From IMG/VR virus record IMGVR_UViG_3300046507_000426: a stretch of DNA of 64,000 bases; one strand, given 5' to 3'. Origin of the DNA: a virus (Duplodnaviria > Heunggongvirae > Uroviricota > Caudoviricetes). Below are positions 9,617 through 54,531 of the stretch, piece by piece. How positions within the stretch are numbered: position 1 is the stretch's first letter; each line of letters opens with the position of its first letter. The position numbers were made by a program, and so were the translations under genes. Under the pieces are notes generated by a model. The model was not told where the DNA came from and ran no database searches. It saw only the letters and a list, made by a program, of their open reading frames with translations.

Positions 9617-9729
9617 TGTATAAAACTGAAGTGAGCAAATGAAATTGATCTGGAGGAAATCTTAAAAGGATAATCCAAATCTGAACGGCTCACAAACTTG
9701 AAGCTGAACAAAGAGTGTACTGCGCGTTT

Positions 9730-10430: not shown

Positions 10431-11039
10431 TGGATAAAATGCGAAGTGTTAGTCCGCGAGGCGGTAACCCAAATTCGTCGGCTCTATTAGTTTGAACTCA
10501 TTCTGCTACGAAGACGAAGCTTAAGTACATCCGGATACCCATCTGGGGAGGTGAACCTGGTCTCATCGACGACTCAGAATTTGCCTTTACCCAGCCACAA
10601 GCTGGGTAATGGTTTTGCTTTTCGCTGTGTGTGCGAGAAGCGTAGAGCACTGTTACAGATACTCTCTGTCCCGTTGTTTTCAACCAATAGATGGCCTTCC
10701 ACAATGACAGTTTAATACTTCAAACTTCTGCTTTGGCAGAGCTACGAAAACTCTGCTTTACTGCTAGTGTACCATGACGTACTCATGTTTACTACTATTC
10801 ACATCTCTGGTACCTGGACGGGGGGCCGCCACCGGTGACATCCTCATCTCGGCGAAGACATCTCGTGTCTCCGCTCCAGCTGTAAGCTGGGCGGGAGACA
10901 ACTTGAAGCTTGTTGCAAACTTCTAGTAACGTTGTCGTTACAAAATACTAAGTCATGTAAGCAATTCTGCAAGGTAACCCTGGTTGCTCATTCAGGGCAG
11001 GAGAACGGACCTTACTTCCGCATGCAACTTGTTCTTGTG

Positions 11040-11243
11040 TTACGTCAGAAGGGCTTGACGATCACGATCTGTGAGGTAACACCGAGGAAACTGTATTTCA
11101 GTGATCTCAGGGCTGTCCTTTGTAACCATGTACTTGCCTTGAGAATCTTCGATCAAGGCAAAACCTTCTTCGTACTCTGCAACGCTAATAACTTCGTTCA
11201 TCATGATCGCCTCTGTTGTTCCGAGATTTAACAGAAGGGACAC
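11040..11243 (-). CDS. Hypothetical small protein (67 aa)
   Basis: ORF on the dominant strand; weak. Confidence 0.3.
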   Translation of the reverse strand: MSLLLNLGTTEAIMMNEVISVAEYEEGFALIEDSQGKYMVTKDSPEITEIQFPRCYLTDRDRQALLT

Positions 11244-11286
11244 AGCGTTCAGAGGCTATGCCCCAAGTATACTACACAGCGATTAT

Positions 11287-11550
11287 TTACTCAACTTCGA
11301 GTTCACGTTGCAGAAGATCATCCGGCGTGACATTTGCCACATTAGCAATCTTCACGATTGTAGCAATGTTCGGACGATAGTTACCAGCGAGAGCACCGAG
11401 ACGTGCATATTGTTCAATACGCTTGAGCGTCGACACCGACAGCTTGGTTGCTGCGGCCATGTCAGCAAAACTGATGTTGCTTTCTTGACGAAGAGTGGTT
11501 GCGTTGCGAACGAAAGTACGGGCTGCTGCTTGAAGAGAAATAGTAGACAT
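11287..11550 (-). CDS. XRE-family helix-turn-helix transcriptional regulator
   Basis: 87 aa; ISFADMAAATKLSVSTLKRIE is a typical Cro/CI-type HTH. Confidence 0.6.
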   Translation of the reverse strand: MSTISLQAAARTFVRNATTLRQESNISFADMAAATKLSVSTLKRIEQYARLGALAGNYRPNIATIVKIANVANVTPDDLLQRELEVE

Positions 11551-11629
11551 CTTTGTAGAACCTAAACAAAAGCCGCTAATAGTAGAATGAGAGAGAAGTC
11601 AACGCGGCTATGACTTCCCTCACAATTTG

Positions 11630-11639
11630 CTTATACCAC
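11630..11639 (-). promoter_or_regulatory. TTGGTATAAG-type extended -10 promoter (variant GTGGTATAAG)
   Basis: Plus cttataccac upstream of minus-strand regulator gene. Confidence 0.45.
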
Positions 11640-11659
11640 AAACTACGTAAAAATTGAAA

Positions 11660-11968
11660 CTAGGTCCAGACTGGATCCTTCTGGTCGAACACATGAAAGA
11701 CTAATTCTCCATTTTCCATCTGGAAAGTAGATACATAGCTTCCAACTTCGCTGAAGTCAATTTTATGCCCTGTACCGAAAATGAAAATCTTTCGTTTTAC
11801 CGAAGGGTTATTTACGTTACAGAGCGCCCACAAACAAAGTTGTCCATTCTGCATTTGCGCATCCAGAAGTTGGGCATGCGCAGGGATATCAATTTCCTGT
11901 TCGTCAGTTATTTCCAATGGAAATTTCCAAACAGTGTAACCGTATTGCTTTTTAATTTCTTCACTCAT
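11660..11968 (-). CDS. Hypothetical protein (102 aa)
   Basis: ORF. Confidence 0.4.
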   Translation of the reverse strand: MSEEIKKQYGYTVWKFPLEITDEQEIDIPAHAQLLDAQMQNGQLCLWALCNVNNPSVKRKIFIFGTGHKIDFSEVGSYVSTFQMENGELVFHVFDQKDPVWT

Positions 11969-12267
11969 TCCGGCCTTCTATTCCATTTTTCGTATTTAAT
12001 TGCTACTGTATTCATTCCACAATTTTTGTCCAGGCATTTTACAAATCCATATCTAAATACCGTATTGTTTTGAACATACATATTAATAAGGTGGCCTTTA
12101 CCGCCGCAGAAGGGACAATCCTTTACAGGCTTCTGACTTTCTTTCTTAAGCCACTCTTCAGGAGATCTATTCTTGAAACGTTCAACGGCTTCATTGAAAA
12201 TCTCCTTCATATCCCTCAGTCTTTCACCGCTCTCAGTGGCACTTTCCAAAGGCTTAAGTTCAGTCAT
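11965..12267 (-). CDS. Zn-ribbon protein (Lar-like restriction-alleviation fold possible)
   Basis: 100 aa; CPFCGGKGH...C..NC Cys cluster. Confidence 0.35.
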   Translation of the reverse strand: MTELKPLESATESGERLRDMKEIFNEAVERFKNRSPEEWLKKESQKPVKDCPFCGGKGHLINMYVQNNTVFRYGFVKCLDKNCGMNTVAIKYEKWNRRPE

Positions 12268-12488
12268 AACAATGTAATCCTTCCCGTTACTGTTTTAGGG
12301 AACATCACTGCGCTTGACACAGGTAGAGGTACAGTGTCTCTTGATCGAATAACTTGACCATTGACACGTAATGCGCCTTGGTCAAGCAATCGTCTGAGTT
12401 CACTGTTTGAACATGGCCCCGGTTTACGCTCAGTGCTACGAAACTGACAAACCTCATTGAGATTCATAATGTATTCAAGGCCAGTCAT
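12264..12488 (-). CDS. S4-domain RNA-binding protein (Hsp15/RqcP-like)
   Basis: 74 aa; SELRRLLDQGALRVNGQVIRSRDTV matches the S4 domain alpha-L RNA-binding motif. Confidence 0.5.
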   Translation of the reverse strand: MTGLEYIMNLNEVCQFRSTERKPGPCSNSELRRLLDQGALRVNGQVIRSRDTVPLPVSSAVMFPKTVTGRITLL

Positions 12489-12489
12489 G

Positions 12490-12777
12490 TTAACTCTTTT
12501 TAAAGAACTTATCTGCGTAACTATCTGGAAGAGGCCGCGCTATACCTAGAGATTCATAGGTAGCATCATCCGGGACAGATAGCGTGGTGTAATGAAAACC
12601 ATCTCCATCGCAACCAATACCGTTTTCACTATCCATCAAATGCTTGCTATAGGCTTTTGCAAGTTTAGCAATAAGGAGGTAATTGAAAGTAAACTTAGGA
12701 TAGTAACTTCCATCGCCCCCATCATCAACAAGAACGTACAGGCTTTTAGACATGTTGTGCAAGATACTCGTCTGCAA
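12490..12777 (-). CDS. Hypothetical protein (95 aa)
   Basis: ORF. Confidence 0.4.
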   Translation of the reverse strand: MQTSILHNMSKSLYVLVDDGGDGSYYPKFTFNYLLIAKLAKAYSKHLMDSENGIGCDGDGFHYTTLSVPDDATYESLGIARPLPDSYADKFFKKS

Positions 12778-19756: not shown

Positions 19757-21154
19757 TCAGATTGCTGCGTTGCGACGTACATCGCTAAAAGACTGGTCAC
19801 GAATCAAAACACCATTCGCATATACAGGTTCCAACAGATCTACACGACCCATAGCATTTTCACGACGAATCGTGGTCAACACTCCGTCATTATCTTCGAC
19901 TAGTGCAAGATGTCCGCGCTTGCTGGTCTTGCCACCAGCGATCGGATCCTTGTACACGTCCAGCCATTTACCATCGACACAGACAGACGATGCCTTCATT
20001 GCAAACGAAAGCGTGTCACGGTCAAGCTTTTGATGCAACGCTCCGCCCATGCCGAATGCAACGTTCTCGGCGCTGAATCCAGCCAACTTAAGAGCAGCAA
20101 GAATTTTCTCGATGCTTTCAGGGTTTACACCATCACCTTGAATGACGCGGACCTTGTTCAGGACCTTAAAGCCTTTCGAGTTAACACTGTAACCGAACGC
20201 ATCGGCCAGTAGCCCGACCACCGTAGAAACGACAGATACAGGTTCACCAGAATCTGGACGAACCACAAGAGTACCAGGTTGGGCCAGGACAAAGTCACGA
20301 AGCTCTCCGCCCCAGATATTTTTAACAGCGTTAAAGATATCGTAGCTATCACTGACAACAGCGAATAGGCCTTGGCCGAATTTTTCGCACATATTTCTAT
20401 AAGCGTCAGCTTCGTGCGTACGCCCCCAACTAGTAATAGTGGAATGCTCAGCAGCGGGAATAGAATAACCCAATCCATTGTAGTCAGCTCCGTAAAATTG
20501 ATGTGCATATTCCAGGCCCAACATAGTGTCGGTACCCATGAAATTAATCAGGTGAGCTGCTCCCGCGATTGCCGACGTTTCGGTCGAGCTTGCCCCACGT
20601 GCGCCAAAGTCATGAAGCTTGAAGGGCATTTCGTCGAGCGGCTTATCGCACGTATCGACAAGGTACTTGAAGATGATCTCTTTACAGTGCCTCGAAATTG
20701 AAGCCACCGTAGTACCGAACCACGCTGCACGAAGGATCTGGGTTTCGAAGAACGAACCGATCCAAGGCATTTCTTCGTCAGTAGACATGACATCCACTAA
20801 TATATTCGACATCGGTACTTGCAAGCCTTCCGGGACTGCGCGGATCACCATCGGAGCATGACCACCATGCACTTTTACCAGGCGATCAAATTCTTTCTTA
20901 GCGAAGGGCTCCCCGTGAATAGAATTGACCTTCATTGCGTACTCGACATGCTCAGCGGTGATTGCGTTGAGCAAGTAATCCTTGATGTAACCTTGCAGAC
21001 CAAAGAACGTGGAGTTCTTGATTCCGAACCCGCTGTTGTCCTTGCGTGCTTCTACGTAAGAGTAAAGACCGGTAGTGCCTTTCGGGTATTGGAGAAAATG
21101 TGAATGCTTGTAAGAGTCAGCATTCAGGAGGGGATTGATTTTAAAGTTTGACAT
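19757..21154 (-). CDS. nadV: Nicotinamide phosphoribosyltransferase (NadV/NAMPT)
   Basis: 465 aa; N-terminal NPLLNADSYKHSHF matches the NAMPT signature; size typical. Confidence 0.85.
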   Translation of the reverse strand: MSNFKINPLLNADSYKHSHFLQYPKGTTGLYSYVEARKDNSGFGIKNSTFFGLQGYIKDYLLNAITAEHVEYAMKVNSIHGEPFAKKEFDRLVKVHGGHAPMVIRAVPEGLQVPMSNILVDVMSTDEEMPWIGSFFETQILRAAWFGTTVASISRHCKEIIFKYLVDTCDKPLDEMPFKLHDFGARGASSTETSAIAGAAHLINFMGTDTMLGLEYAHQFYGADYNGLGYSIPAAEHSTITSWGRTHEADAYRNMCEKFGQGLFAVVSDSYDIFNAVKNIWGGELRDFVLAQPGTLVVRPDSGEPVSVVSTVVGLLADAFGYSVNSKGFKVLNKVRVIQGDGVNPESIEKILAALKLAGFSAENVAFGMGGALHQKLDRDTLSFAMKASSVCVDGKWLDVYKDPIAGGKTSKRGHLALVEDNDGVLTTIRRENAMGRVDLLEPVYANGVLIRDQSFSDVRRNAAI

Positions 21155-21206
21155 GATTTTTTAACGCCTCGTTAAATTAAAGTTGCCTACTCTTTGTAGG
21201 ACTTGG

Positions 21207-22355
21207 TTAAATACCGACCAGCTTGCGAATAATGGAAAGATGATCTTCGTAGATCTTATCTGCCATCTTCAGGATTTCGTCGTACGTGAAGAACTTGGCA
21301 TCTGCTGCGTCGTCTCCAGCTTTGATCTTGGGGATTCCAGCTTTCTTATCCGCCCGGTCAAGATCAAAGAGAAAAGCATGGGTAAAAGTACGCCCACGCA
21401 GACTGCGATTAGGATGGTCAAAAACAACGCCTTCGCCCATAGAACCAAGCAACAGATTAGGAGGAAGATCAAGGCTAGTTTCTTCTTTGAGTTCACGAAG
21501 CGCCGCATCTTTAAGTCTCTCATTCTGTTCTACGAATCCGCCTGGCAATGCCCATAATCCTTCACCCGGCGCGGCTTTGCGCTTCACAAGGAGAATGTGT
21601 CCAGCCTTCTTCACTACTGCATCTACAGTAACAAACGTAGGTGCATACGGAGCTGCCTTCCAAGCTTCCTTATACTTCTTGACCATCTGATACTCACGAG
21701 ACAGACGGTAGTATTCCGGAGACTTGATGAAGTCTTTCAGAAAGTCGAAAGTGTACGTAGGAACAAGGCTTTTCAACAGATCGATGAATCCTGGCTTTTC
21801 GAAAATGATTTCCCGAATCGACGTAGCGTCAAATCCGAGTTTCACTTCATCTACCGGAACATAGTCATATTGCGGGAACAGATCGAGATAATACGAACTC
21901 TCGTCTTTCTTATTGCCGACAATCGCAACCTTGATAGGTTTACGTTTTTCAACAGGAGTTGAAGCATCGTGCAAAGGGGTGTAGTATGCGATTTTTTCCT
22001 GAACTTGCTTTGCCCAGTCATCGTCGGAATACATATTATCAACCAAAGCTTCGGTATTAAACCGACCTTCGTTGATAGTGCCGATCTCTTCCTGCGTAAG
22101 AGACATAGCAATCATCGTCGCACGTTCATCGTACGTGAAAGGATTCTTGATGGTGCGGGGGGCGTTTGCAGACCCAATCAATACAAGAACACGATCAGCG
22201 ATCAGCATTCCTTTATTGACGAGAATCTGGTGACCAACATGGTAGGGTTCAAAGCGACCCATTACTACTGCAAGATCATATTCTTTGGGTTTACGTTCCG
22301 TAGAAATGATTTCATACTGCTGCACGATTTCGTGCTTAAGGGACATAATTGACAT
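21207..22355 (-). CDS. nadM: Bifunctional NMN adenylyltransferase / Nudix hydrolase (NadM-Nudix)
   Basis: VVMGRFEPYHVGH carries the (H/T)xGH nucleotidyltransferase motif; C-terminal GGFVEQNERLKDAALRELKEETSL is the Nudix box; pairing with nadV as in KVP40-type phages. Confidence 0.8.
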   Translation of the reverse strand: MSIMSLKHEIVQQYEIISTERKPKEYDLAVVMGRFEPYHVGHQILVNKGMLIADRVLVLIGSANAPRTIKNPFTYDERATMIAMSLTQEEIGTINEGRFNTEALVDNMYSDDDWAKQVQEKIAYYTPLHDASTPVEKRKPIKVAIVGNKKDESSYYLDLFPQYDYVPVDEVKLGFDATSIREIIFEKPGFIDLLKSLVPTYTFDFLKDFIKSPEYYRLSREYQMVKKYKEAWKAAPYAPTFVTVDAVVKKAGHILLVKRKAAPGEGLWALPGGFVEQNERLKDAALRELKEETSLDLPPNLLLGSMGEGVVFDHPNRSLRGRTFTHAFLFDLDRADKKAGIPKIKAGDDAADAKFFTYDEILKMADKIYEDHLSIIRKLVGI

Positions 22356-26300: not shown

Positions 26301-26478
26301 ATTATGTGGTAGGGCTACAGGGTACTGACCCCTATTCTACGGATTAAAAGTCCGTTGCTTCACCTTAAAGCTTTAACCCCACAAATGAAAGCTAGTATAC
26401 ATTGCTTTGAGAAGACCCACAAGGAGTCTTTCCAAAACAAGCTAGGCTCCTTGTGAGAGCCCAGCCGTTTACTTACGC

Positions 26479-29359: not shown

Positions 29360-29728
29360 TTACAAACAGCGGTCAATGACTCGGGCGATCTTCTTGAAGC
29401 TGAGTTGGTCAGTGTCGTTCAACGTAGAAAGCTTAGTTTCTTTCCCACGATACGTGACTTTGACATCGGTCGGTACATCAGCCGAGTCCAAAACAGAAGG
29501 ATTGAGTCCAGCCCATTCAGCTACCGCCAGGGGAAGCAAGCCACTAGCGCCCATATATTCGTCTGGCCAGGGTTCTTTCGCCGCAACTTCAGGATGTTCC
29601 TGAGCATGGATGTTGCATAGAACGCCGAGGCAACAGAAACCTTCGTCGTCACGCAACGCACCCGTAGTCTGTTTGTAATCACCGCCGCGCAGTGCCTTGA
29701 TCCATTTGTTCTTGATACGCTTTTTCAT
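29360..29728 (-). CDS. Paralogue 6 of tandem six-gene family (conserved termini, variable core)
   Basis: MKKRIKNKWIKALRSGDYKQ...FCCLGVLCNIH...LSFKKIARVIDRCL. Confidence 0.55.
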   Translation of the reverse strand: MKKRIKNKWIKALRGGDYKQTTGALRDDEGFCCLGVLCNIHAQEHPEVAAKEPWPDEYMGASGLLPLAVAEWAGLNPSVLDSADVPTDVKVTYRGKETKLSTLNDTDQLSFKKIARVIDRCL

Positions 29729-30081
29729 AGTTGTGCTTCGATGAGATCAGCTAGTTGGTTGAAAGAAAATTGCTTGATGTCGTTAAGAACAGAAATATGA
29801 GTTCTCCATTCTTTTGGATAAGCCAGCGAAGCTGGTTGACGCATGTACGGGTTGTTTTCTTCCAAACCCGCCCACTCTTTTACATGATCAGGTAATTCTC
29901 CCGCGATGCTTTCAAACGATTGCTCGCAGTTTAGTTCCTTGTCATGCAAATCACAGAGAACACCAAGACAGCAAAACTTGGGATCTATACCTTCATAAAC
30001 AGTTTTGAGTCTGGTTAAACCCTGTTTGTATTCACCGCTCCGAAGAGCGGCTACCCATTTGGCTTTGACTTCGTTGTTCAC
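29725..30081 (-). CDS. Paralogue 5 of tandem family
   Basis: MNNEVKAKWVAALRSGEYKQ...FCCLGVLCDLH...FSFNQLADLIEAQL. Confidence 0.55.
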   Translation of the reverse strand: MNNEVKAKWVAALRSGEYKQGLTRLKTVYEGIDPKFCCLGVLCDLHDKELNCEQSFESIAGELPDHVKEWAGLEENNPYMRQPASLAYPKEWRTHISVLNDIKQFSFNQLADLIEAQL

Positions 30082-30434
30082 AGTGCGTATTGAATGATGT
30101 CAGCGATTTGAGAAAATGGCAGACCCGAGTCGTTTAGATCTACAAGCGAAACAGAGTCAGTAGTCGGAGTCTCTACGCCAGTGTATCCGAGGTCACTTCC
30201 AAGCTCAGACCATTCTCTAACTTCAATAGGAGGAACGGAATAACCATTGAGCATATGCTTTTCCGGACCTCTTTCTTCTCTGTCAACCCATTCAACTCCG
30301 GTTTCTTTGCCATACAGGTCACAAAGAACGCCTAGGCAACAGAACCCACTAGGACCATTCAGAAATGCATGGCCTTGTTTATACTCTCCGCTGCGAAGCG
30401 CAGCTACCCACTTGGCTTTGATTTCTTGGTTCAT
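30078..30434 (-). CDS. Paralogue 4 of tandem family
   Basis: MNQEIKAKWVAALRSGEYKQ...FCCLGVLCDLY...LPFSQIADIIQYAL. Confidence 0.55.
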   Translation of the reverse strand: MNQEIKAKWVAALRSGEYKQGHAFLNGPSGFCCLGVLCDLYGKETGVEWVDREERGPEKHMLNGYSVPPIEVREWSELGSDLGYTGVETPTTDSVSLVDLNDSGLPFSQIADIIQYAL

Positions 30435-30790
30435 AGTGCGAATTGAATCACGTCAGCGATTTGGTTAAAAGTGAATCCGGAATCGTTAAGAACTGTGAGT
30501 TCCTCAGTTATTCCATCGCGGTTTTTAATATCATTGAGGTATCCGGTTCTGGAGGGAAAACCGGACCAGTCCTGGACTTGGGTAGGAGGAGTACCGATTC
30601 TGTCCAGAAAGATAAACTCTGGCTTGTTATCCTTTTCAGGAACCCATTCAGTTTCAGTATCCTTGGCGTAAATATCGCAGAGGACTCCGAGACAGCAGAA
30701 TCCCTCGTCATTACGCAAGCAATTTTTGGTTTGAGCATACTCACCGCTGCGAAGCGCAGCTACCCACTTGGCTTTGATTTCTTGGTTCAT
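30431..30790 (-). CDS. Paralogue 3 of tandem family
   Basis: MNQEIKAKWVAALRSGEYAQ...FCCLGVLCDIY...FTFNQIADVIQFAL. Confidence 0.55.
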   Translation of the reverse strand: MNQEIKAKWVAALRSGEYAQTKNCLRNDEGFCCLGVLCDIYAKDTETEWVPEKDNKPEFIFLDRIGTPPTQVQDWSGFPSRTGYLNDIKNRDGITEELTVLNDSGFTFNQIADVIQFAL

Positions 30791-31143
30791 TAGAAGAAGT
30801 ACTCGATAACGTCAGCGATTTGAGAAAAGGTGAATTCACCGGAGTCGTTCAGGCTTACCAAGCCTTCCCCATCCCCTTCTCTGGTAAGCAAACCAGGAAC
30901 GAGAGAAGTTTCTGCGAATTCAGCCCAATTAAGAGTTACTTGAGGGGGATACCCCCCACAGCGTTCAACCTCTTGAATCCCAGAGCCAGCATGTTCCCAT
31001 TGCGGACCTCCTTCCTTTGCGTGAACATCGGAAAGGACTCCGAGGCAACAGAACCCATCGTCTCTTTTCAAGTAGCCGACGCTCTGTTTGTACTCACCGC
31101 TGCGAAGCGCAGCTACCCACTTTGCTTTGATTTCTTGGTTCAT
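30790..31143 (-). CDS. Paralogue 2 of tandem family
   Basis: MNQEIKAKWVAALRSGEYKQ...FCCLGVLSDVH...FTFSQIADVIEYFF. Confidence 0.55.
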   Translation of the reverse strand: MNQEIKAKWVAALRSGEYKQSVGYLKRDDGFCCLGVLSDVHAKEGGPQWEHAGSGIQEVERCGGYPPQVTLNWAEFAETSLVPGLLTREGDGEGLVSLNDSGEFTFSQIADVIEYFF

Positions 31144-31556
31144 AGCGTGAATTGAATAACGTCAGCAATCTGGTTGAAGGTAAGCCCACCGTCGTTGAGT
31201 TCGGCCAAAGAATACCCCAAGTAGCCAGGGGTATCTTCAAAGGACTTTGTAAATCCCTGGTAAATTCCAGTATTGGGATTTTCCTTGTCGAGATCGGCCC
31301 ATTTCATAACACTAGCAGGAGGTACAACTTCTGACCCTTCAAATGTACCAATGGAAGTATACTTTTGCAAAACCCTGCTATCTTCCTCCTTAGCGGTTCT
31401 CGGCACCCATTCACCTTCTCCAGTTTTCTTCATGTAAAGATCACAGAGAACGCCAAGACAACACATGCCGCCGTCACCGTTCAAGACATGTTTGGCTTGT
31501 TTGTATTCGCCGCTACGCAGAGCAGAGATCCATTCCTGTTTGATTTCGTTGTTCAT
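31140..31556 (-). CDS. Paralogue 1 of tandem family (start at internal ATG MNNEIKQEW)
   Basis: MNNEIKQEWISALRSGEYKQ...MCCLGVLCDLY...LTFNQIADVIQFTL; longer variable core. Confidence 0.5.
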   Translation of the reverse strand: MNNEIKQEWISALRSGEYKQAKHVLNGDGGMCCLGVLCDLYMKKTGEGEWVPRTAKEEDSRVLQKYTSIGTFEGSEVVPPASVMKWADLDKENPNTGIYQGFTKSFEDTPGYLGYSLAELNDGGLTFNQIADVIQFTL

Positions 31557-31720
31557 TTCGTTACTCCGAGTTTTGCTGTTAGTAGAACGCAGGTGAATCC
31601 AACTACGACACACATGACGTAGCCTGCGAATTTAAGGGTATTACGGCGACGCATTTTGACCAACCAAAAAAGAGAGATGCAGAATTAAAGGCTACTTCTT
31701 ATACAACTCTCTTATACCAA

Positions 31721-31735: not shown

Positions 31736-32266
31736 TTAGCCTCCAGAAGACCAGCCTTCCCGTTCCATCATGGCCATAGCTTCGCCTTCAAAGGCGTCTT
31801 TTAGCAATGCCGGGTCGGCTTCTCTTAGCGCCAGCATCATTGCCAGATTTGCAATGTCTACGGGATCCCCTTTGGGGACATGGCTGACAAGAAGATTCGC
31901 TAATCGTTTTGTACTGCATTGTTCTGGATCATCCCAACCGCTTCTACCCTTCTCACGAGACTTTGCAAGCTTCGCTTTCATCATGGCTGCGAACTTGTCT
32001 ACTGCGAAATCGTCAGGATGAGGCTCCGATACTTTGGAACCTTCCCACACATAGACTAGCTCTTCGAGTTCTTTCAAGGCCGCGTTTCTGTTCTTGTGTT
32101 GACTGCGTTCTGTAATGCATTCGGTCACAATACCGCTAGGGATGTGCGTGATTCTCACACCATTAGCCATTCCTACTCTTTGACCACCTACGGCACCGCC
32201 ATAACAGTCGATGCGTAGGTCTTTAGGGTTAATCGAAACCAAAGGTGTCTGACGCTCTTCTTTCAT
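31736..32266 (-). CDS. Peptide-chain-release-factor GGQ-domain protein (ArfB/PrfH-like peptidyl-tRNA hydrolase domain) with novel acidic C-terminus
   Basis: 176 aa; [46 protein letters not shown] closely resembles RF1/RF2 domain 3 (SGAGGQHVN..VRITHIPTGIVVQCQ.ERSQHKN); lacks codon-recognition domains. Confidence 0.7.
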
Positions 32267-33863: not shown

Positions 33864-34709
33864 TCAGTTACCCATTTTCGGAAGCTGGATAAGAGCCGAA
33901 CTGCCACTGCCGAGTTGATACGTCGGAAGTTGACCGTTCCACTTTTCGATCCACATTTGTTGCAGAATCTCCGGGTTCTTGGCCAGTGCCTGACCACGAA
34001 TAGCCGTAGCTTGTGCTTCGTTTGCAGCGATCTTCAGGTCGGCATCCGAATTGGCAATACGCTTTGCAGCATCTGCCTGGGTTTTCTGCAGCTGGTTCTG
34101 CGACGTGATAGCGTCCATCTTTGCCTGTTGCTGAGCATTGATGGAATCCTGAATCGCAGGAGGCCAACGGAATGCGCCTACGTTCGAGAGCAGTTCAACC
34201 GACAACCCGCTAGGTGCTGCACGCTTGGCGAGTTCAGCGTTAACAGCAACCATGAAGGCCGGAATGTCATTGCTGATCTGCTCGAAGGTAAGCTTACCCG
34301 CGATTTCGTTAAGACTGTCACGGATAAGGTTACGCAAAGGACCGTCGGTAATACCGTTCAGATCCTTGTGGTACTTCTGGAACACAAGCGGAGCACTGTC
34401 TGCAGCGATGTGATACGCAACACCGAAGTCAGCATTGATGGCAACGCCACCCTTTGCCTGGAACGTGATCGACTCGTCGGCCGGATGACCTTCTTCCGGA
34501 GCCTTGCTGTACACGTAGTTTTCCGTGAACGTCGGATACTCGTACACAGTCGTGTTCCAGCCGGTGAAGTACGAACCCGGGCCGAGAACCTTGTTCTGGA
34601 CGCCACGGTCACTGCCGTAGTTATCCACCTGAACACCGACGAAGCCTGCGCCAACCTTGGTACAGGCACCGAGCATGAATACAACGACGATAAGAAGAAG
34701 TTTCTTCAT
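33864..34709 (-). CDS. SPFH/band-7 (prohibitin/HflKC-like) lipoprotein
   Basis: Start at internal ATG gives MKKLLLIVVVFMLGAC lipobox; the body (about 280 aa, Gln/Ala-rich helical C-terminal region) resembles band-7/SPFH proteins. Confidence 0.6.
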   Translation of the reverse strand: MKKLLLIVVVFMLGACTKVGAGFVGVQVDNYGSDRGVQNKVLGPGSYFTGWNTTVYEYPTFTENYVYSKAPEEGHPADESITFQAKGGVAINADFGVAYHIAADSAPLVFQKYHKDLNGITDGPLRNLIRDSLNEIAGKLTFEQISNDIPAFMVAVNAELAKRAAPSGLSVELLSNVGAFRWPPAIQDSINAQQQAKMDAITSQNQLQKTQADAAKRIANSDADLKIAANEAQATAIRGQALAKNPEILQQMWIEKWNGQLPTYQLGSGSSALIQLPKMGN

Positions 34710-34906
34710 TGTGTTTTTTGTTTCTTTGGTTTGAGGAAGAAATACCAACCGCCAAAGGCGATTAGCGGGATGGTCAACCACAGCAGCGGCACGAAGTAAA
34801 TCAGGTCGCCTCCATTATTAACCAACTGCTGTGTTACGGGCAACAGCAGGAACAACAGATAGAGCGTTGCCAAAATCCCGTAGGCAACTGCTGCGATTTT
34901 CTTCAT
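34706..34906 (-). CDS. Small 2-TM membrane protein (possible NfeD-like partner of SPFH protein)
   Basis: 66 aa; two hydrophobic helices; 4-nt overlap with SPFH gene. Confidence 0.4.
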   Translation of the reverse strand: MKKIAAVAYGILATLYLLFLLLPVTQQLVNNGGDLIYFVPLLWLTIPLIAFGGWYFFLKPKKQKTQ

Positions 34907-35824: not shown

Positions 35825-37888
35825 TTACTTAACGTCTTTGAACTCGACGTCAGCAACGACGTGAGCATCCTTGTGCATGCCCAGCAACGTCATGTCGTTT
35901 TTGCCACCACGTTCGAACACCGCCTTCTGGAATTCCAGACCCTTGTTGAGGATCAGTTGGAAGTCCTTGATGTCCGTCGGACGCTTGCCTTTCAGTGCCA
36001 GAGCCGAAGCGTTGCGAGTAGCCGTCTTGATCTGACGACCATTGATCTCGTAGGTTTCGGCAAGGTAAAGAATTTCCGTCGCGGTGAGTTGCACCGAATT
36101 CATATTGAGGTTGTTCTCCCAAATTTGAACACGGTCACCAGTAGTCAGCGCAGGGAAGTTAATCGCCATGCTGATACGGGAGTAGAACGCCTTGTCGATG
36201 TTGCTTGCACGGTTCGACGTCAGGAACAGAACGCCTTGATAGTATTCCAGCAGACGCAGGAAAACACCGACCATAGCATTCCGTTGGATATTGCTATCCG
36301 TACGGGCTTCCATGAAGATGTCGCATTCGTCAAGCAGGAGCACTGCATTCCACGTCGCGGCGATATCCAGAACCTGACGCAGATTGTCTTCCAGCTCGCT
36401 GGCACTCGTCCCGAGTTCGCCAACGCCAACCATGTACAGCGGACGCTTCAGATGCTCTGCCGTAACTTCAGCAGTAAGCGTCTTGCCAGTACCCGGTTCA
36501 CCGGCCAGCAGGAAAATCGTGCCACCACCCTTGCCATCGATGATGTCGACCTTCTTGCCTTCCAGCTGGGTTTCCACCAGCGACACGATCATTTCCTTCT
36601 GATCTTCGTCCATCACCAGCTTGCCGTAAGCATCCGTACGGAACTGAATCGGAGTGATGTTGTCGACCAGCATTTCACCCCAGACCTTCGACAGGAACGA
36701 GAAGCCATAAACATACGGCGAGAACGTCAGATACACGTCATCGCTCAGCTTCACCGTTTCAGCCTTGGCCGTGTAGCCGTACGAGTCACGATCCTGAGTT
36801 CCGCCAAAGAACTTGCGGTAGTTCGGATCCATGATACGCATTGCCTGGAAGTCGATCATGACACGACCCGTCGAACGGAAAGCCGTGTTGCTCCAGTAGC
36901 CGCGACGAACCAGATCGCCCTTGTACTGCATGTACGACGACGAAGCCGTAACTTCGACACCGCGCTTGCCACGAGCGAGGAGACGGGCTTTGAGTTCAGC
37001 ATCCGATTCCAACGGCGTGATGCCCAGTTCCTTCAGGCTCTTCTTGCCGTCGTAACCACCGAAGTAGTACTGATGCGTGAATTGCTGAATTTCCTGACCG
37101 TTACGTGCGTACATATGCCCAGCTGCAGCGATGTACGGGCCGCTCATGCTCATCTGCTGACTTGCAGCGTGAGTCGTAACACAAACCAGGGCGAAGTCGT
37201 CTTCGACAACCAGCTTGATGCCAGGCTGAGCCAGGAGAACGGCGAGTTCGTCATACGTGAACTCGTTGTTGACCGACAGATTGCTGATATTGCCGAGAGT
37301 GTTTGCGTAGAACGCATTCACTTCTTCGAGGATACGGGTCATCTGCGAACGAACACGTTCGATGAAGTCCTGATCGTCGTTGTAGTCGTCCAGGTTGTTC
37401 AGGTACGATTCGATGTTCGAACGGTTCTTGAAGATTTCCAGACCGCCAACCATACCCGCGCCACGAGCAACGTTGAACTGTGCCGGGTTGTTGATGTAGT
37501 TGAACTCGTTCGTGGACGTGTTCATACGGCTGCCGATGACACGACCATAGTTGTTCATGTCCGCACGAATGTCATACGGAACATAAACCTTGATCTGTCC
37601 AGTACGGCCCGGAATCACTTCTGCAATCGGACGGGAAGCGACAGGCATTTCGTCGCTGCTGATCGAGATCGCCGCGATTTCTGCGATCGGATCCGTCTTG
37701 CCAAGACCGGCGTTTTCGAGAGCAGCCTTGACCACTTCTGCGATCATTGCAGCTTGTGCAGCCGCCGCAGCGACTTCCGGAGCGACAGCGGGTACATCAG
37801 CCTTGGCAACTTCGCCAATAGCAGCGCCTGCATTCGATTCCGCGATTTGTTCTTGAATGTCACTCACGTTGATTTCCTTCGTTTCCAT
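35825..37888 (-). CDS. AAA+ ATPase (start at internal ATG METKEIN)
   Basis: Walker A GEPGTGKT, Walker B LLLDECD, sensor region; about 687 aa with long N-terminal domain. Confidence 0.65.
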   Translation of the reverse strand: METKEINVSDIQEQIAESNAGAAIGEVAKADVPAVAPEVAAAAAQAAMIAEVVKAALENAGLGKTDPIAEIAAISISSDEMPVASRPIAEVIPGRTGQIKVYVPYDIRADMNNYGRVIGSRMNTSTNEFNYINNPAQFNVARGAGMVGGLEIFKNRSNIESYLNNLDDYNDDQDFIERVRSQMTRILEEVNAFYANTLGNISNLSVNNEFTYDELAVLLAQPGIKLVVEDDFALVCVTTHAASQQMSMSGPYIAAAGHMYARNGQEIQQFTHQYYFGGYDGKKSLKELGITPLESDAELKARLLARGKRGVEVTASSSYMQYKGDLVRRGYWSNTAFRSTGRVMIDFQAMRIMDPNYRKFFGGTQDRDSYGYTAKAETVKLSDDVYLTFSPYVYGFSFLSKVWGEMLVDNITPIQFRTDAYGKLVMDEDQKEMIVSLVETQLEGKKVDIIDGKGGGTIFLLAGEPGTGKTLTAEVTAEHLKRPLYMVGVGELGTSASELEDNLRQVLDIAATWNAVLLLDECDIFMEARTDSNIQRNAMVGVFLRLLEYYQGVLFLTSNRASNIDKAFYSRISMAINFPALTTGDRVQIWENNLNMNSVQLTATEILYLAETYEINGRQIKTATRNASALALKGKRPTDIKDFQLILNKGLEFQKAVFERGGKNDMTLLGMHKDAHVVADVEFKDVK

Positions 37889-37920
37889 ATCGATTAGGCT
37901 ACAAAAAGTGCTGCAAAGAA

Positions 37921-37946
37921 AAACCCCTCTAGACTTCAGAGGGGTG
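37921..37946 (-). terminator. Rho-independent terminator after tRNA pair
   Basis: Minus strand CCACCCCTCtgaagtctaGAGGGGttt. Confidence 0.5.
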
Positions 37947-37972
37947 GTTATAAAGCTTCTCAATAAACTTCT

Positions 37973-38072: not shown

Positions 38073-38142
38073 TAACAAAAGGGGGATACGAGCCCCCAGC
38101 CTCACAAGAGTATGTGCGCTCTACCAATTGAGCTATTTTGTT
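38073..38142 (-). ncRNA. tRNA-like RNA with canonical acceptor, D- and T-arms but a 6-nt anticodon loop
   Basis: Acceptor AACAAAA/TTTTGTT, D-arm GCTC-AATTGGTA-GAGC, T-arm GGGGG-CTCGTAT-CCCCC, anticodon region CACA-TACTCT-TGTG. Confidence 0.35.
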
Positions 38143-38182: not shown

Positions 38183-38728
38183 TCAATCTAGTTTAATGAG
38201 TCCTGCATGAACCTCACGGTGACAATTGGAACACAGTAAAGCACATTTATCTAATTCTGTAAATAAATCTTTGTCATTTAAAGTAGCGTCTCGTCCGTAT
38301 CTAGAAATAAGAAAGTCTTTTTCTTTAGGATCTAAATGATGAAATTCTAAAGCGCCTTCATATTTGTCGTATCCGCAACACTGGCATTTATTACCTTTAT
38401 AATCTAAGGCCTGTTTTTTAATACTATTTTTAGCTGCATAGTTTTGTTGCTTTACACACGCTTTGCAATAAGAGCCGGGTTTTTCTTTACCAGATATAAC
38501 AACTTTTCTAAATTCAAAAACAGATTTTTCTAATTTGCAAGAGCGGCAAATTTTAGTTTTTAATTGTTCATACGAAACGTATGAATCGTACTTTTGGGCA
38601 AGCTGGGTTTTAATACCCAGTTTTTTCATGTAGTACTTTACTTTATGAATTGAACAGCCAAGATGTTCACTCATTTCTTTGGCTGTCAATCCCATATCTA
38701 TCAAGGGTTGAAGTATGTCAGAGTTCAT
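38183..38728 (-). CDS. HNH homing endonuclease (HTH plus Zn-ribbon plus HNH)
   Basis: LEFHHLDPKEKDF...CALLCSNCHREVH; paralogue of 28076..28600. Confidence 0.7.
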   Translation of the reverse strand: MNSDILQPLIDMGLTAKEMSEHLGCSIHKVKYYMKKLGIKTQLAQKYDSYVSYEQLKTKICRSCKLEKSVFEFRKVVISGKEKPGSYCKACVKQQNYAAKNSIKKQALDYKGNKCQCCGYDKYEGALEFHHLDPKEKDFLISRYGRDATLNDKDLFTELDKCALLCSNCHREVHAGLIKLD

Positions 38729-39002: not shown

Positions 39003-39326
39003 TTAGGGTCTCCACAAAGGCAAATTACTAAAGAGCTTACGATCTTCCTGATTAATAGACACGGTCGTGATCGACGTCCAACCCATGTCATCGTCAGGCT
39101 CGTGGAACGTGCTGTGAACGATGCCTGCAGCCTTAAGTTTTTTGTGAAGCTCAAGCAAGGCTTCTTCGTTTGGCACCTGCAAGAGGACCAGCGAAGGGAT
39201 TTCACAATCTAATGCCGCACCGTTTTTCGGATCGGCTTGGCCAGCGTGAAATGCGGAATGCGCAGTCTGAACGATCTGATCTGCGAGGGGAATATCTTTG
39301 CGAATGATTGAATAAATGTAAGACAT
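39003..39326 (-). CDS. Putative PTH2-family peptidyl-tRNA hydrolase (divergent)
   Basis: 107 aa; IIRKDIPLADQIVQTAHSAFHAG resembles the PTH2 vvRtDL...aAQ.aHAa block. Confidence 0.4.
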   Translation of the reverse strand: MSYIYSIIRKDIPLADQIVQTAHSAFHAGQADPKNGAALDCEIPSLVLLQVPNEEALLELHKKLKAAGIVHSTFHEPDDDMGWTSITTVSINQEDRKLFSNLPLWRP

Positions 39327-39440: not shown

Positions 39441-39516
39441 TGGTAGGAACATCGGGGCTCGAACCCGAGACCTTCAGATTTAGAATCCGCTGCTCTGCCA
39501 ACTGAGCTATATTCCC
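39441..39516 (-). tRNA. tRNA with anticodon CTA (putative amber suppressor)
   Basis: Acceptor GGGAATA/TGTTCCT, D-arm GCTC-AGTTGGCA-GAGC, A26, anticodon arm GCGGA-TTCTAAA-TCTGA (U33, anticodon C34-U35-A36, A37), T-arm TCGGG-TTCGAGC-CCCGA, A73-CCA. Confidence 0.5.
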
Positions 39517-42892: not shown

Positions 42893-43303
42893 TTAAAGTA
42901 GCGGTAACCCACCGGTCACCGTATCTATCTTATCTTCAAAATCCGGACCTACTGCGATGCAAGTATTAGTAGGTATTCCGTGAAATTCTGTAAGACCAGA
43001 ATCTGTAATCAATGAAGTTATGATACCAGCTTCTTTTGCCTTTGCATAGAGTGCGAGTAGTTCTTCTTCGGAATTTACATATACACACACTTTTTTGAAG
43101 TTGCCCAGGAGCCAGTCATGCATACGGTTGTCGACTTTCAGTCGAAACTCTGCAGTGACTTCTCCGTTGATCCGGTCGTTTTCTTTAATGTAATGACCTT
43201 GATTCAAAATCGCTGCTAGACTTGCATGGGCACCTTGTGCCACAGCTTTTCCGGTGCGCATTTTGAGGTCTTTTCTAATTACAATAATTTGCTTGTGACT
43301 CAT
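42893..43303 (-). CDS. PTH2-family peptidyl-tRNA hydrolase
   Basis: 136 aa; IVIRKDLKMRTGKAVAQGAHASLAA matches the PTH2 signature strongly. Confidence 0.7.
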   Translation of the reverse strand: MSHKQIIVIRKDLKMRTGKAVAQGAHASLAAILNQGHYIKENDRINGEVTAEFRLKVDNRMHDWLLGNFKKVCVYVNSEEELLALYAKAKEAGIITSLITDSGLTEFHGIPTNTCIAVGPDFEDKIDTVTGGLPLL

Positions 43304-43457: not shown

Positions 43458-43997
43458 ATGTCTAATAAAAATCTCAAAGAACAAATTATAACACTTAAAC
43501 AACGAGGACTATCTTATAAAGATATCCAAAAACAACTCAACTGTTCCAAGGGAACGATATCGTATCACTTGGGAGAAGGTCAGAAAGAAAAAACGTATAA
43601 CAGAACAATTGAACTTCGTAAGCAAAATACTCTTCTTCAAAAGAAAGATCATTTTCTAGGAGCTAGAACTAAGAAAAATTTCCAAGAAAGAACAAGAGCG
43701 TTTCAGTGCATCGACAATGGTTCTAAAACCTCTGATAAAATCCAATCTAATTTTACCTGGCAAGAACTTTTAGAAAAGTTTAATGGTACTTGTTACTTAA
43801 CAGGAAGACCTGTAGACATTACTAAATCTGCAGAATATCAATTAGATCATATCGTTCCTAGATCTAAAGGAGGCCCCGACACCTTAGACAATTGCGAATT
43901 TGCGTGTAAGGATGCAAATTTTGCAAAGAGTAACCTATCCCTGGATGAATTTAAACAACTCTGTCTAGACGTTGTAAATCACTTCGGCCTTAAATAA
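43458..43997 (+). CDS. HNH homing endonuclease (plus strand, inside tRNA cluster)
   Basis: 179 aa; DHIVPRSKGGPDTLDNCEFACKDANFAKSN HNH motif; N-terminal HTH. Confidence 0.7.
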   Translation: MSNKNLKEQIITLKQRGLSYKDIQKQLNCSKGTISYHLGEGQKEKTYNRTIELRKQNTLLQKKDHFLGARTKKNFQERTRAFQCIDNGSKTSDKIQSNFTWQELLEKFNGTCYLTGRPVDITKSAEYQLDHIVPRSKGGPDTLDNCEFACKDANFAKSNLSLDEFKQLCLDVVNHFGLK

Positions 43998-52098: not shown

Positions 52099-54522
52099 TT
52101 ACAAACGCGGATCCAGCGTCTTTTCTTCATTCAGTTGCGAGATCATTTTCACAACCAGTTCAGTCAGAGCAGGGCCATTGTCTGCTGTCAGCATTGCCAG
52201 TGCAAGATCGTGTTCCTTGATAGAAACCTTCAGCTTACCGCCGACACGTTTTTGACGACACAGGGCTTCATAACGGTTCTTGTAATCATAGCCATACACA
52301 AGAGTCAGGTAATTTTCATTCCGAACCTTCATATACGGTGCAACATCTGCCGTACCGTCAAGAGGCTTGATTACAAGGCCTTCCATCTTTTCATCAACGG
52401 TTTTACAGTTGAAGAAAGTCTTTGCATTTTCCAAAACCTCTTTATCGTTTTCAAGGTCGATGATTACGATGTCGTCCTGGTTAACCAAGTCAAAGGAATC
52501 TGCAATCTGGAATTTGTCACCAAACACCTTACCGTCAACCTTCAGAATAGAGAACGCACTGTATTCCGGACGGCTTTCCTGAGCATAAATATCAAGGGTT
52601 TCGCCGAATATCTTCAGATCAACCTGACGAGCTTCGACGTCGATTTTTGCCTTGAATCCCAACTTGGCAAATTCCTCATCGTTAGCCAATGCATCCAGTT
52701 CGTAATGTACCAAACCTTCATACGCACGGAACTGTTCGTCAACCAGACTTTTACCAAGGGTCGTCCACGGCAGAAGTTCACCGTCAAGAATCAGTTCTTC
52801 TTGCCAGAAGTCAATACTTTCCCCTTCGTACTTAGCAAGCAATTCCTGAATCATAACGGTGAGGTCTTCTGTCATGCGAATCTTAAAGCCATTACGAGAA
52901 ACCAGGAAACACTCTTCCGGTTTACCGCGATACAGATATGCCTGACAACGTGAACCCATGTACTTCGGTTGAAGCATGACCCGCTTCGTTCCACGACTTT
53001 TGAAATACTCAAGTCCAGCTTCAAGACTTTCGATTTCAGTGTTAGTCGACGGAGCAGGGGCCATCGTTCCTGAAATGTACTGAACTCGGTTTGCGATAGT
53101 ACGCTTCAGAAATCTCATATCTTCCGGCGACAGTTTGTAGTCGTAGATATTGAACGACTTCTGCGGAGGTGCTATCGGAGTCGTCAAGAAGTTCTGAAGA
53201 CCCTTGTGAACTGTTACCTTTTCAGCTGCCTGAACCGAATCAAACCAGTAACGATTTCCTTTATAACAGAAAGCAGTAAGCTTGCCGCCATAAACAGCCC
53301 CAGTATCGAGAAACACCTTGTTACGATGTTCCAGTTTGGCTGCATTGTGAGCAACGTGCCCAAACACATGCAAAGGAAAATTCCCAACAGCTTCCTTGAA
53401 AATAAACTCATAAGCCTTCCGGTAGTCTTCTTTTCGATCACCGTACAGATTGCGCTGAGCCTTAAGTGCTGCAGAATTCATCTTACCCAAATACTTCTGC
53501 TCGCACGGAGCATGGGTTACGTAAACTGTACGGACTTGGTTGCCGTGAATCTTCAAGAACGGAACAGAACAGCGATCGAACAAGTCCACAAGCTCTGCTG
53601 CCAACGTTTCGTCTTTCAACAGAACGTCAAGCGAACTCATGTACTTCGATTCCATCTCCAGATCAGGATTTTTGATTTCACCCTTGATACGCTTCACCGC
53701 ATACGACTCGTGATTGCCGTGGAGAATAATGCCACCGTCGGTGTGAAACTTCCTGGCGAAGGCAATTGCTTTGGCAGTATCATTGCCTTTGTCAATGTAA
53801 TCACCGACAAGAACATTGATGCTATTTGCACCGACCTTAGCTACAAGCTGTTCAGCAGCTTCCGTGTGTTCATGTACATCTCCGATGATATTCACCTGCA
53901 TGTCTCGACCAAGATAGAGCTGAGTAGCTGCGTATTTGCCCAAATCTTCGATTTCAACTTCCAGATCTATCCACTTTTTGGCGTCTCGTTCACGGATACG
54001 AATACAATCATCGTGATCTTTACGACCGAGATTCGGAAGGACGCTTTGTTTGAATCGCTTGGCGCTCGATTCTACAACCCGTTTTTCTTCCTCATTCGAT
54101 TCCGACCAGTACTGATAGTTCGGATATTCAAACGTAATCAATTCAGTACGATATTCGTTTTCTTCAGCGAGTTTACGAATTTCCTTTCGAAACGTATCAT
54201 TCATACCAGTAGTATCAACGATTACGAATTCACTGTTGATCGGGAACGCAATCGCCGCTTTAAACTTCGCCATCATCACGTTGAAAGCTGCTTCCGAAGC
54301 TTCCATCATGACCGGGGCGTAACGATGGAGACTCAAATCATCCAAGACGTTCATTCGTTCAGCATCAGAATTCAAGTTTACAACCTTCGAACCTGCAGCA
54401 AGTCCTGCTTTCATCAACTGAAAGTTCAACGCAAGTTCGAACTGTTTCGAGAATGTGGTTTTACCGCACATCGAAGGGCCAACCAAAATGAAGACTGTGT
54501 GGAGTTTAGTTTGAATTTTCAT
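52099..54522 (-). CDS. pnkp: Bacterial-type polynucleotide kinase-phosphatase with C-terminal ligase domain (Pnkp)
   Basis: 807 aa; N-terminal P-loop GPSMCGKTT (kinase); central metallophosphoesterase motifs IIGDVHEH...GDYIDKGND...LHGNHESY; C-terminal nucleotidyltransferase/ligase KVDG motif (SILKVDGKV). Confidence 0.75.
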   Translation of the reverse strand: MKIQTKLHTVFILVGPSMCGKTTFSKQFELALNFQLMKAGLAAGSKVVNLNSDAERMNVLDDLSLHRYAPVMMEASEAAFNVMMAKFKAAIAFPINSEFVIVDTTGMNDTFRKEIRKLAEENEYRTELITFEYPNYQYWSESNEEEKRVVESSAKRFKQSVLPNLGRKDHDDCIRIRERDAKKWIDLEVEIEDLGKYAATQLYLGRDMQVNIIGDVHEHTEAAEQLVAKVGANSINVLVGDYIDKGNDTAKAIAFARKFHTDGGIILHGNHESYAVKRIKGEIKNPDLEMESKYMSSLDVLLKDETLAAELVDLFDRCSVPFLKIHGNQVRTVYVTHAPCEQKYLGKMNSAALKAQRNLYGDRKEDYRKAYEFIFKEAVGNFPLHVFGHVAHNAAKLEHRNKVFLDTGAVYGGKLTAFCYKGNRYWFDSVQAAEKVTVHKGLQNFLTTPIAPPQKSFNIYDYKLSPEDMRFLKRTIANRVQYISGTMAPAPSTNTEIESLEAGLEYFKSRGTKRVMLQPKYMGSRCQAYLYRGKPEECFLVSRNGFKIRMTEDLTVMIQELLAKYEGESIDFWQEELILDGELLPWTTLGKSLVDEQFRAYEGLVHYELDALANDEEFAKLGFKAKIDVEARQVDLKIFGETLDIYAQESRPEYSAFSILKVDGKVFGDKFQIADSFDLVNQDDIVIIDLENDKEVLENAKTFFNCKTVDEKMEGLVIKPLDGTADVAPYMKVRNENYLTLVYGYDYKNRYEALCRQKRVGGKLKVSIKEHDLALAMLTADNGPALTELVVKMISQLNEEKTLDPRL

Positions 54523-54531
54523 TGTTGATCC

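Follow-up and report, generated by a model that had tools for sequence, protein, structure and literature searches.

Gene and protein architecture

We analyzed a 64,000-nucleotide stretch of a Caudoviricetes virus genome (IMG/VR record IMGVR_UViG_3300046507_000426), referred to here as the window, and in particular a minus-strand gene at 31736..32266 whose product joins a release-factor (RF) domain carrying the Gly-Gly-Gln (GGQ) motif to a second folded domain. Upstream of this fusion gene lie a AAA+ ATPase gene (about 700 residues), a Band_7 protein gene and small unassigned open reading frames (ORFs), and downstream of it are six paralogs of the DUF8296 family. In the ORF list, the gene starts with an ATG at 32266, ends with a TAA stop at 31736-31738 and encodes 176 residues; the GGQ-domain ORF proposed by a first-pass annotation of this DNA is therefore real. 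The first 38 nt overlap the 3' end of a 52-residue upstream ORF. A protein identical to the window protein (P0001) is encoded by 4-5 contigs from metagenomes, the longest being 131 kb. The functional statements made below rest on sequence, predicted structure and comparative genomics.

The protein consists of two domains and a tail, all encoded on the minus strand. The N-terminal domain, residues 10-78 (32033..32239), is an RF1/RF2-type release-factor domain 3 without the insertion found in ArfB. Its GGQ codons, for G27, G28 and Q29, lie at 32180..32188, as placed by the alignment with RF2 and the position of the motif. The core of the C-terminal domain, residues 83-150 (31817..32020), is a four-helix bundle with a conserved signature, and it is followed by a variable acidic helix and tail, residues 151-176 (31739..31816), with a net charge of -4. 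The AlphaFold model of the whole protein, calculated with 120 homologs as input, has a mean confidence score (pLDDT) of 88.6. In this model, the N-domain comprises strands 17-22, 36-41 and 47-50 and a helix at 56-78, and the C-domain forms a separate bundle with helices 84-105, 119-132, 135-147 and 152-169. The acidic C-terminal region reported earlier is only partly borne out: the C-terminal half has a net charge of -4 and an isoelectric point of 5.1, but the charge is confined to the last 26 residues, and the core (83-150) has a net charge of +1.

As had been claimed, codon-recognition domains are lacking; neither a PCRF nor a codon-recognition domain appears in Pfam or NCBIfam profile searches. 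The window protein combines the GGQ domain of a release factor, lacking any codon-reading domain, with a four-helix domain that is widespread in phages. Both halves are already known as database entries, since the protein belongs to the RF-1 domain superfamily and to two PHROG families.

The release-factor domain

Domain 3 of RF1 and RF2 is the part of these factors that reaches into the A site of the 50S subunit and the peptidyl-transferase center (PTC). The assignment of residues 10-75 to this domain, made in the first-pass annotation for residues of about 20-75, is well supported. The Pfam RF-1 profile (PF00472) matches these residues at E=3.8e-15 (56.3 bits, gathering score 35) over profile positions 5-73 of 116. 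With phmmer, residues 232-302 of E. coli RF2 align to residues 10-78 of the window protein at E=1.4e-15 and about 52% identity, with GGQ placed on GGQ. Among solved structures, RF2 and RF1 of E. coli are the best matches, and Foldseek superposes the N-domain model on domain 3 of RF1/RF2 as found in many ribosome complexes. The ERSQHKN segment is also present; in the sequence block quoted earlier, the motif letters are IPSG and not IPTG. Against the full-length NCBIfam models, the protein scores only 59.3 bits for prfB (cut-off 370) and 58.8 bits for prfA (cut-off 423).

The loop around the GGQ motif departs from the cellular pattern. Two one-residue deletions flank the motif, making the loop two residues shorter than in RF2, and the sequence that follows is RVGMANG, compared with the universal HVNxTxSA of cellular factors. 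A match to the viral family phrog_20323 (E=2.4e-17, profile positions 2-65 of 73) links the N-domain to small viral proteins described below.

Orthologs and decay of the GGQ loop

Eleven further metagenomic proteins, 51-69% identical to P0001, contain both domains. Additional orthologs were found in IMG/VR (L008 and L009-L011) and in a scan of JGI metagenomes (L221), giving a small ortholog set of 14 distinct metagenomic sequences. In all loci with flanking sequence, the gene order is the same: AAA+, Band_7, small ORFs, the fusion gene and, after an interval of about 175 nt, 3-7 DUF8296 genes followed by ThyX and a NadR-like gene. The fusion genes are orthologs, and the fusion is confined to a single clade of large uncultured phages. 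A megablast search of 50,697 phage records with 4 kb of sequence surrounding the gene gave no match, and by tblastn none of these records holds both halves; identity to the best AAA+ homologs from cultured phages is no higher than 39-42%.

Within this set, the GGQ motif is retained in only three of the 14 proteins: the window protein, P0002/L008 and P0004. It reads GGM in P0003, GYQ in P0005 and GFQ in P0006, P0010 and L221, and it is unrecognizable in P0007, P0008, P0009, P0011/L009, L011 and P0012. With regard to a possible loss of the catalytic glutamine, the answer is therefore divided: the window protein keeps Q29 aligned to the GGQ of RF2, but 11 of the 14 orthologs lack GGQ.

The decay is concentrated in the loop. 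Averaged over all pairs of 13 orthologs, identity is 24% in the GGQ loop (residues 23-35), 57% in the N-domain outside the loop, 74% in the C-domain and 20% in the tail at the C-terminus. The RF signature residues P14, D16, H41, P43, G45, R54, N59 and A63 of the N-domain core are invariant, and most of the 39 invariant columns among the orthologs fall in the C-domain. In a neighbor-joining tree calculated without the loop columns, degenerate motif states occur on both main branches, which indicates several independent losses of GGQ. In cellular release factors, no segment is more conserved than the GGQ loop, and substitution of either glycine abolishes release. Since the loop has decayed while the core and the C-domain are kept, selection appears to maintain the domain-3 scaffold and the C-domain rather than hydrolysis. 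Judged from these sequences, peptidyl-tRNA hydrolysis is most probably not what selection maintains in the fusion family.

The C-terminal domain

The region after the release-factor domain had been regarded as a C-terminal tail. This view does not hold, because the region is a folded and independently widespread phage domain. Residues 77-151 match three PHROG families of unassigned function, phrog_8298, phrog_16645 and phrog_5040 (E=4.4e-21 for phrog_8298), and the domain modeled alone reaches a pLDDT of 90.8. Its signature, HPDDxAVDxFAxxMKxKL...RxKGRxGW...C...H..KGDxxDxAN..MM..R, consists of columns that are nearly invariant in 109-129 homologs. No match was found in Pfam, among PDB sequences (E<=10) or in PADLOC, and a fold search of BFVD returned only uncharacterized phage proteins.

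An exhaustive profile search detected the C-domain in 6,440 cluster representatives at E<=1e-3, of which 4,061 remain at E<=1e-10. It is found by itself or joined to a wide variety of partners, most of them unannotated; the sporadic named ones are Lar, Ead/Ea22, helix-turn-helix (HTH), DUF551, R67-DHFR-like and Pol III beta-like proteins. In bacteria, it is located in prophage regions of proteobacteria (Zobellella, Aeromonas, Chromobacterium, Rhizobium, Burkholderia and others). In 185,579 genomes of bacterial species, the C-domain is never joined to an RF domain, and only C-domain-alone prophage genes are found. With thousands of clusters, it is among the more abundant uncharacterized phage domains, and a functional assignment would annotate many genes.

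One partner is more informative. In gp295 of Caulobacter phage CcrSC (MH588547.2; L301:958-1758), the C-domain is fused with the N-terminal portion of an HD hydrolase of the RelA/SpoT type, recognized by Pfam HD_4 (E=1.5e-7) and TIGR00691 (E=1e-11).

The predicted fold of the C-domain may resemble the all-alpha nucleoside triphosphate (NTP) pyrophosphohydrolases (MazG, HisE, dimeric dUTPase and AF0060, the last placed in this superfamily by SCOP; PMC2238974), at fold level only. No profile link to these enzymes was obtained in Pfam, in a PDB profile search (E<=10) or with hhalign, where comparison of the C-domain profile with the dUTPase_2 (dimeric-dUTPase-like) protein of the window gave a probability of 0.04%. 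The EExxE...ExxD metal-binding motif of the pyrophosphohydrolases is not visible in the C-domain alignment, where the conserved residues are instead HPDD/D90, H129, D134/D137/N140 and R104/K106/R108/W111. Judging from the up-down topology of the helices, H83/D85/D86/D90, H129/K132 and D134/D137/N140 should cluster at one end of the bundle, and R104/K106/R108/W111/R148 at the opposite end. In the predicted structure, two such clusters would suit a metal or ligand site and a phosphate-binding patch.

Other viral domain-3 proteins

A scan of IMG/VR with the N-domain yielded 51 loci (among them L091-L140), mostly encoding standalone proteins of 64-76 residues that belong to phrog_20323 and are annotated as 'RF-1 domain peptide chain release factor'. 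These viral mini-GGQ proteins have the same truncated domain boundaries as the N-domain of the window protein, and their loop, ...RGGQHVGTxPGVRVTHIPSG, is of the same type. The pattern GGQ-x-V-G...G-V-R/K-x-T-H-x-P-S/T-G and its spacing are common to both and differ from the cellular motif. The mini-GGQ proteins are single-domain and mostly keep GGQ, whereas the window protein has an additional C-domain and its orthologs are mostly GGQ-less. The motif is retained in 20 of 24 unique complete standalone viral proteins of 100 residues or fewer, compared with 3 of 14 fusion orthologs (Fisher p=3.5e-4, for sequences that are phylogenetically non-independent). An association of mini-GGQ genes with tRNA genes is weak, being limited to one subfamily located 0.7-1.7 kb upstream of tRNA-Met in 6 of 38 loci.

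Conversely, viral domain-3 modules joined to other sequence are usually without GGQ, as in L100 (196 residues), L130 (155 residues), L132, L139 and L140. The same holds for 'RF1' genes of cultured phages: the motif is GGM in gp006 of Pseudomonas phage phiPsa315, and LPPA15 has no GGQ. The phiPsa315 protein (MT670419.1; L088:2531-2980), annotated as 'peptide chain release factor 1', consists of the GGM domain 3 joined C-terminally to KVQMIKDVRQRVGCGLKEAKEAVD, a segment that matches the factor-binding helices of ribosomal protein L7/L12. The match is E=1e-5 in Pfam, just over the gathering score, and E=1e-3 for the NCBIfam L12 model. Together with the SpoT-type HD fusion of CcrSC, each being a single lineage, this hints that fusions of these domains may act around the ribosomal A site and the GTPase center. 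Our literature search found no experimental work on viral mini-GGQ proteins or such fusions, and none on DUF8296 or the C-domain.

Genomic context

The window clearly derives from a large phage that is heavily equipped for translation and RNA repair. The translation-related surroundings noted in the first-pass annotation are present at the level of the genome, which carries PTH2, Pnkp/Hen1, Thg1, Ro60 and at least 20 tRNAs (20-22 by count), along with ribonucleotide reductase, ThyX and NAD-salvage genes. The closer association that had been described, with two PTH2 genes, a suppressor tRNA and an S4/Hsp15-like gene beside the fusion gene, is not found. The PTH2 genes and the tRNA are found 7-11 kb upstream, in a block where tRNA and HNH-endonuclease genes are abundant, and only one PTH2 is clear (42893-43303, about 10.6 kb from the fusion gene; E=6e-31). 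The other, at 39003-39326, remains below threshold (22.4 bits, cut-off 23). The tRNA, at 39441-39516 on the minus strand, has a CUA anticodon (amber suppressor; labeled 'Pyl' by ARAGORN). No S4/Hsp15 domain appears in the approximately 40 window ORFs scanned or among the precomputed Pfam hits for genes up to 10 kb away, and a motif scan likewise gave none. TAG serves as the stop codon in only three of 59 minus-strand ORFs of at least 80 residues, and one of the three is spurious, lying over tRNA genes.

Two genes upstream of the fusion gene are kept in all related contigs: the AAA+ ATPase (35825-37963, minus strand), which shows weak PADLOC similarity to IetA, and the Band_7/SPFH lipoprotein-like gene (33864-34781, minus strand). 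The six DUF8296 paralogs, of about 117-138 residues, form a tandem array at 29360-31556 (minus strand) and share the motif W..ALRSGEY.Q...CCLGVL...LND...F.QIAD. All related phage contigs have such an array, of 3-7 copies, at this position, and no solved homolog of DUF8296 was found. Because DUF8296 accompanies the C-domain in only one of 76 other viral loci, its linkage to the fusion gene reflects clade synteny only.

The gap between the fusion gene and the array contains a 28-nt element, GGTATAAGAGAGTTGTATAAGAAGTAGC, at 31691-31718 (minus strand), which is unique in the window and holds the direct repeat GTATAAGA. With 24 of its 28 positions conserved, the element is nearly invariant among seven divergent phage loci, in which the flanking proteins share only about 50% identity. 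Such an element may be a phage-specific promoter or regulator site. Scans for sigma-70 promoters and terminators around the fusion gene found no more sites than in shuffled sequence. A conserved 33-codon ORF (31553-31654, minus strand) encodes the hydrophobic peptide MRRRNTLKFAGYVMCVVVGFTCVLLTAKLGVTK; its stop codon overlaps the first DUF8296 start (ATGA), and the indels among loci are multiples of three.

Further genes of RNA metabolism on the minus strand are a bacterial-type RNA-repair pair at 52099-55833, composed of Pnkp (kinase/phosphatase/ligase, 807 residues) and Hen1 (433 residues), a Thg1-like 3'-5' nucleotidyltransferase at 62665-63504 (Pfam Thg1, E=6e-26) and a Ro60 protein with TROVE and vWA domains at 7117-8739. 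By the Ro60 gene, convincing ORFs are absent from about 3 kb (about 9700-12500), which could contain Y-RNA-like RNAs; Rfam detects none in this region at the gathering threshold. Rfam also lists two tRNA-like genes not reported by ARAGORN, at 38073-38142 and 26310-26380 (both minus strand), and HNH (homing) endonuclease-like genes lie amid the tRNA array at 38183-38728 (minus), 43458-43997 (plus) and 9170-9616 (minus). The NAD-salvage pair at 19757-22355 (minus strand) comprises a nicotinamide phosphoribosyltransferase-like protein of 465 residues, called from sequence reading only, and a NadR-like protein of 382 residues (CTP_transf_like and NUDIX), called from precomputed Pfam hits in L001.

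Possible function of the fusion protein

We propose, with a probability of roughly 0.4, that the N-domain mainly binds the 50S A site and PTC, or another partner of RF domain 3, and that the tethered C-domain supplies the conserved activity. The domain-3 module would dock at one of these sites and thereby bring or anchor the C-domain at the translation apparatus, where the C-domain might act by oligomerization or by binding or hydrolyzing nucleotides or alarmones. In the window phage, which has an intact GGQxVG-type loop, the protein may additionally hydrolyze peptidyl-tRNA independently of stop codons, on ribosomes with an empty A site; judging from the motif losses, this hydrolytic activity would evidently be dispensable in the sister phages. 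The proposal draws on the conserved two-domain architecture, the fixed gene order, the conservation of the core and the C-domain and the repeated decay of the loop. It also draws on the GGQ-poor viral fusions elsewhere, the L7/L12 and RelA/SpoT-HD fusion partners and the translation toolkit of the genome.

Several points weigh against this proposal. Ribosome binding by the domain-3 module is something that we infer from sequence, and we know of no isolated GGQ domain with productive ribosome binding. ArfB needs its basic tail to bind the ribosome (PMC3950681), and the window protein has no equivalent. Other partners of the C-domain (Lar, HTH, DUF551, R67-DHFR-like and mostly unassigned proteins) are not translation-related, so the RF module may be just one partner among many that are interchangeable. 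The HD_4 fusion and the L12 fusion each represent a single lineage. Finally, since the window protein and its two closest relatives keep GGQ, hydrolysis could be the main role in this subclade.

The last point leads to the function suggested originally, that of an active, codon-independent peptidyl-tRNA hydrolase that would rescue stalled ribosomes in the manner of ArfB, ICT1 or mtRF-R, for example after host anticodon nucleases or mRNA cleavage have caused stalling, with the bundle replacing the ArfB tail in binding or sensing. The stand-alone GGQ domain and its intact motif, shared with P0002 and P0004, survive from that claim, as does the 52% identity with RF2 domain 3. Moreover, the retention of the GGQxVG...G loop in most standalone mini-GGQ proteins indicates that this loop is evidently functional somewhere. 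The genome also offers a suitable setting, with PTH2, Pnkp/Hen1, Thg1 and many tRNAs; phage and mycobacterial tRNA arrays are known to hold RF-1-domain and PTH2 genes (PMC5966550), and PTH2 has been tied to rescue after tRNA cleavage in jumbo phages (PMC7824862). However, the protein belongs to neither the ArfB nor the PrfH family, the supposed tail is a domain found in thousands of proteins without an RF domain, and the genomic context is weaker than described, with no S4/Hsp15 partner in the scanned ORFs. The loop, two residues shorter and devoid of HVNxTxSA, is the least conserved segment of its domain and has lost GGQ in 11 of 14 same-locus orthologs, and the basic tail and linker that serve ArfB are replaced by a folded domain with an acidic end. 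We therefore regard a rescue role as a serious alternative, although a somewhat unlikely one. The C-domain could instead be the only functional part, as an enzyme or oligomerization module, with the RF-derived N-domain a neutral or unrelated captured partner that has no role in translation. The near-invariance of the C-domain, its huge distribution with unrelated partners and the decay of the GGQ loop would fit, but the core of the N-domain is still constrained, its RF signature residues are invariant, and domain 3 is kept in every ortholog, where a neutral appendage would have been lost or scrambled. This makes such an explanation distinctly unlikely.

A further alternative is that the domain-3 module is a mimic or decoy that would titrate a binder of RF1/RF2 domain 3, such as PrmC or a host defense or toxin system monitoring release factors, for example to weaken termination while the phage CUA-anticodon tRNA reads UAG. 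The conserved surface core with non-conserved catalysis, the presence of this tRNA and the near avoidance of TAG stops are in line with this idea, and the solved RF1-PrmC complex (2b3t, among the structure matches) shows domain 3 as a protein-recognition surface. PrmC recognition, however, centers on the GGQ loop, precisely the part that decays; the tRNA and the fusion gene are 7 kb apart in different gene blocks, and the argument is purely inferential. We give this possibility low odds; it and the C-domain-only explanation are both less likely than ribosome tethering or rescue. That the gene is merely a leftover piece of a full-length prfA or prfB could be suspected from the match to only the middle of the RF-1 profile. 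This has a negligible probability and is rejected: the ORF is intact, at least 14 distinct sequences keep the same boundaries and C-terminal fusion, neither similarity to RFs nor PCRF remnants are found in the flanking ORFs, and both domains are confidently folded in the model.

Returning to the tethering proposal, a broader version of it would be that phages have made RF domain 3 a non-catalytic label that addresses varied effector modules to the A site and GTPase center. We consider this generalization unlikely. In that case, the window protein would modulate host translation or stringent-response signaling while tethered to the ribosome, and would not be a rescue factor. The effector here would be the NTP-pyrophosphohydrolase-like domain, which in another phage is fused to a SpoT-type (p)ppGpp-hydrolase domain, and in phiPsa315 it would be an L7/L12 factor-binding motif. 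The 70-residue standalone mini-GGQ proteins would represent a separate, truly minimal release factor.

Comparison with known GGQ systems

To our knowledge, all characterized GGQ proteins (RF1/2, ArfB/ICT1, PrfH and mtRF-R) combine the catalytic domain with an element that chooses the target ribosomes. The window protein has the domain 3 fold, the signature residues and the ERSQHKN segment in common with RF1 and RF2, but their domains 1, 2 and 4 are absent, and therefore it should not read stop codons.

ArfB (YaeJ) and ICT1 are similar to the window protein in being small and in having a GGQ domain without codon-recognition domains, and by analogy with ArfB the window protein could in principle release peptides independently of the codon. 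Nevertheless, the helix inserted in the GGQ domain of ArfB and ICT1 is absent from the window protein according to the alignment with RF2. The flexible linker and basic C-terminal helix of ArfB are also missing, and a folded bundle with an acidic end is found instead. In ArfB, residues R118, L119, K122, K129 and R132 of the basic tail are required for ribosome binding and activity (PMC3950681). The window protein would not sense an empty mRNA channel as ArfB does.

PrfH, which is associated with RtcB, is a truncated RF homolog tied to RNA-damage responses, and the window phage likewise has an RNA-repair pair, Pnkp/Hen1. However, the domain-2/4-like module by which PrfH recognizes a damaged decoding center is absent from the window protein, PDB matches to PrfH reach only E=3e-3, and no RtcB turned up in the part of the window ORFs that was scanned. 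The 'ArfB/PrfH-like' label of the first-pass annotation has to be dropped after profile comparison: the protein scores 14.4 bits against the NCBIfam ArfB model (NF006718; cut-off 100) and 31.7 bits against the PrfH model (TIGR03072; cut-off 166.65), the latter over profile positions 105-161 only. These scores, together with the missing ArfB helix and tail, rule out membership in either family.

The mitochondrial factor mtRF-R (C12orf65), which acts with MTRES1, is another small GGQ protein, and it gives a weak direct match (7a5h_C, E=1.8e-6). A GGQ domain without a part that binds the small subunit would fit an action on split large subunits, as in the mtRF-R system. The S4-like partner gene of that pair was not found for the window protein in the scans described above, and the C-terminal region differs. 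The window protein is thus not RF1/RF2, ArfB/ICT1, PrfH or mtRF-R.

Two viral groups break the pairing of a catalytic domain with a targeting element, namely the GGQ domains of about 70 residues that have no such element and the fusions that lose the catalytic motif. Working out both groups could reveal a minimal release or rescue activity, relevant to escape from defenses that target tRNA or mRNA, or alternatively a new viral way of docking effectors on the ribosome. Compared with the known systems, it is this pattern of minimal viral GGQ domains alongside separate GGQ-less domain-3 fusions, more than the single gene, that is most striking.

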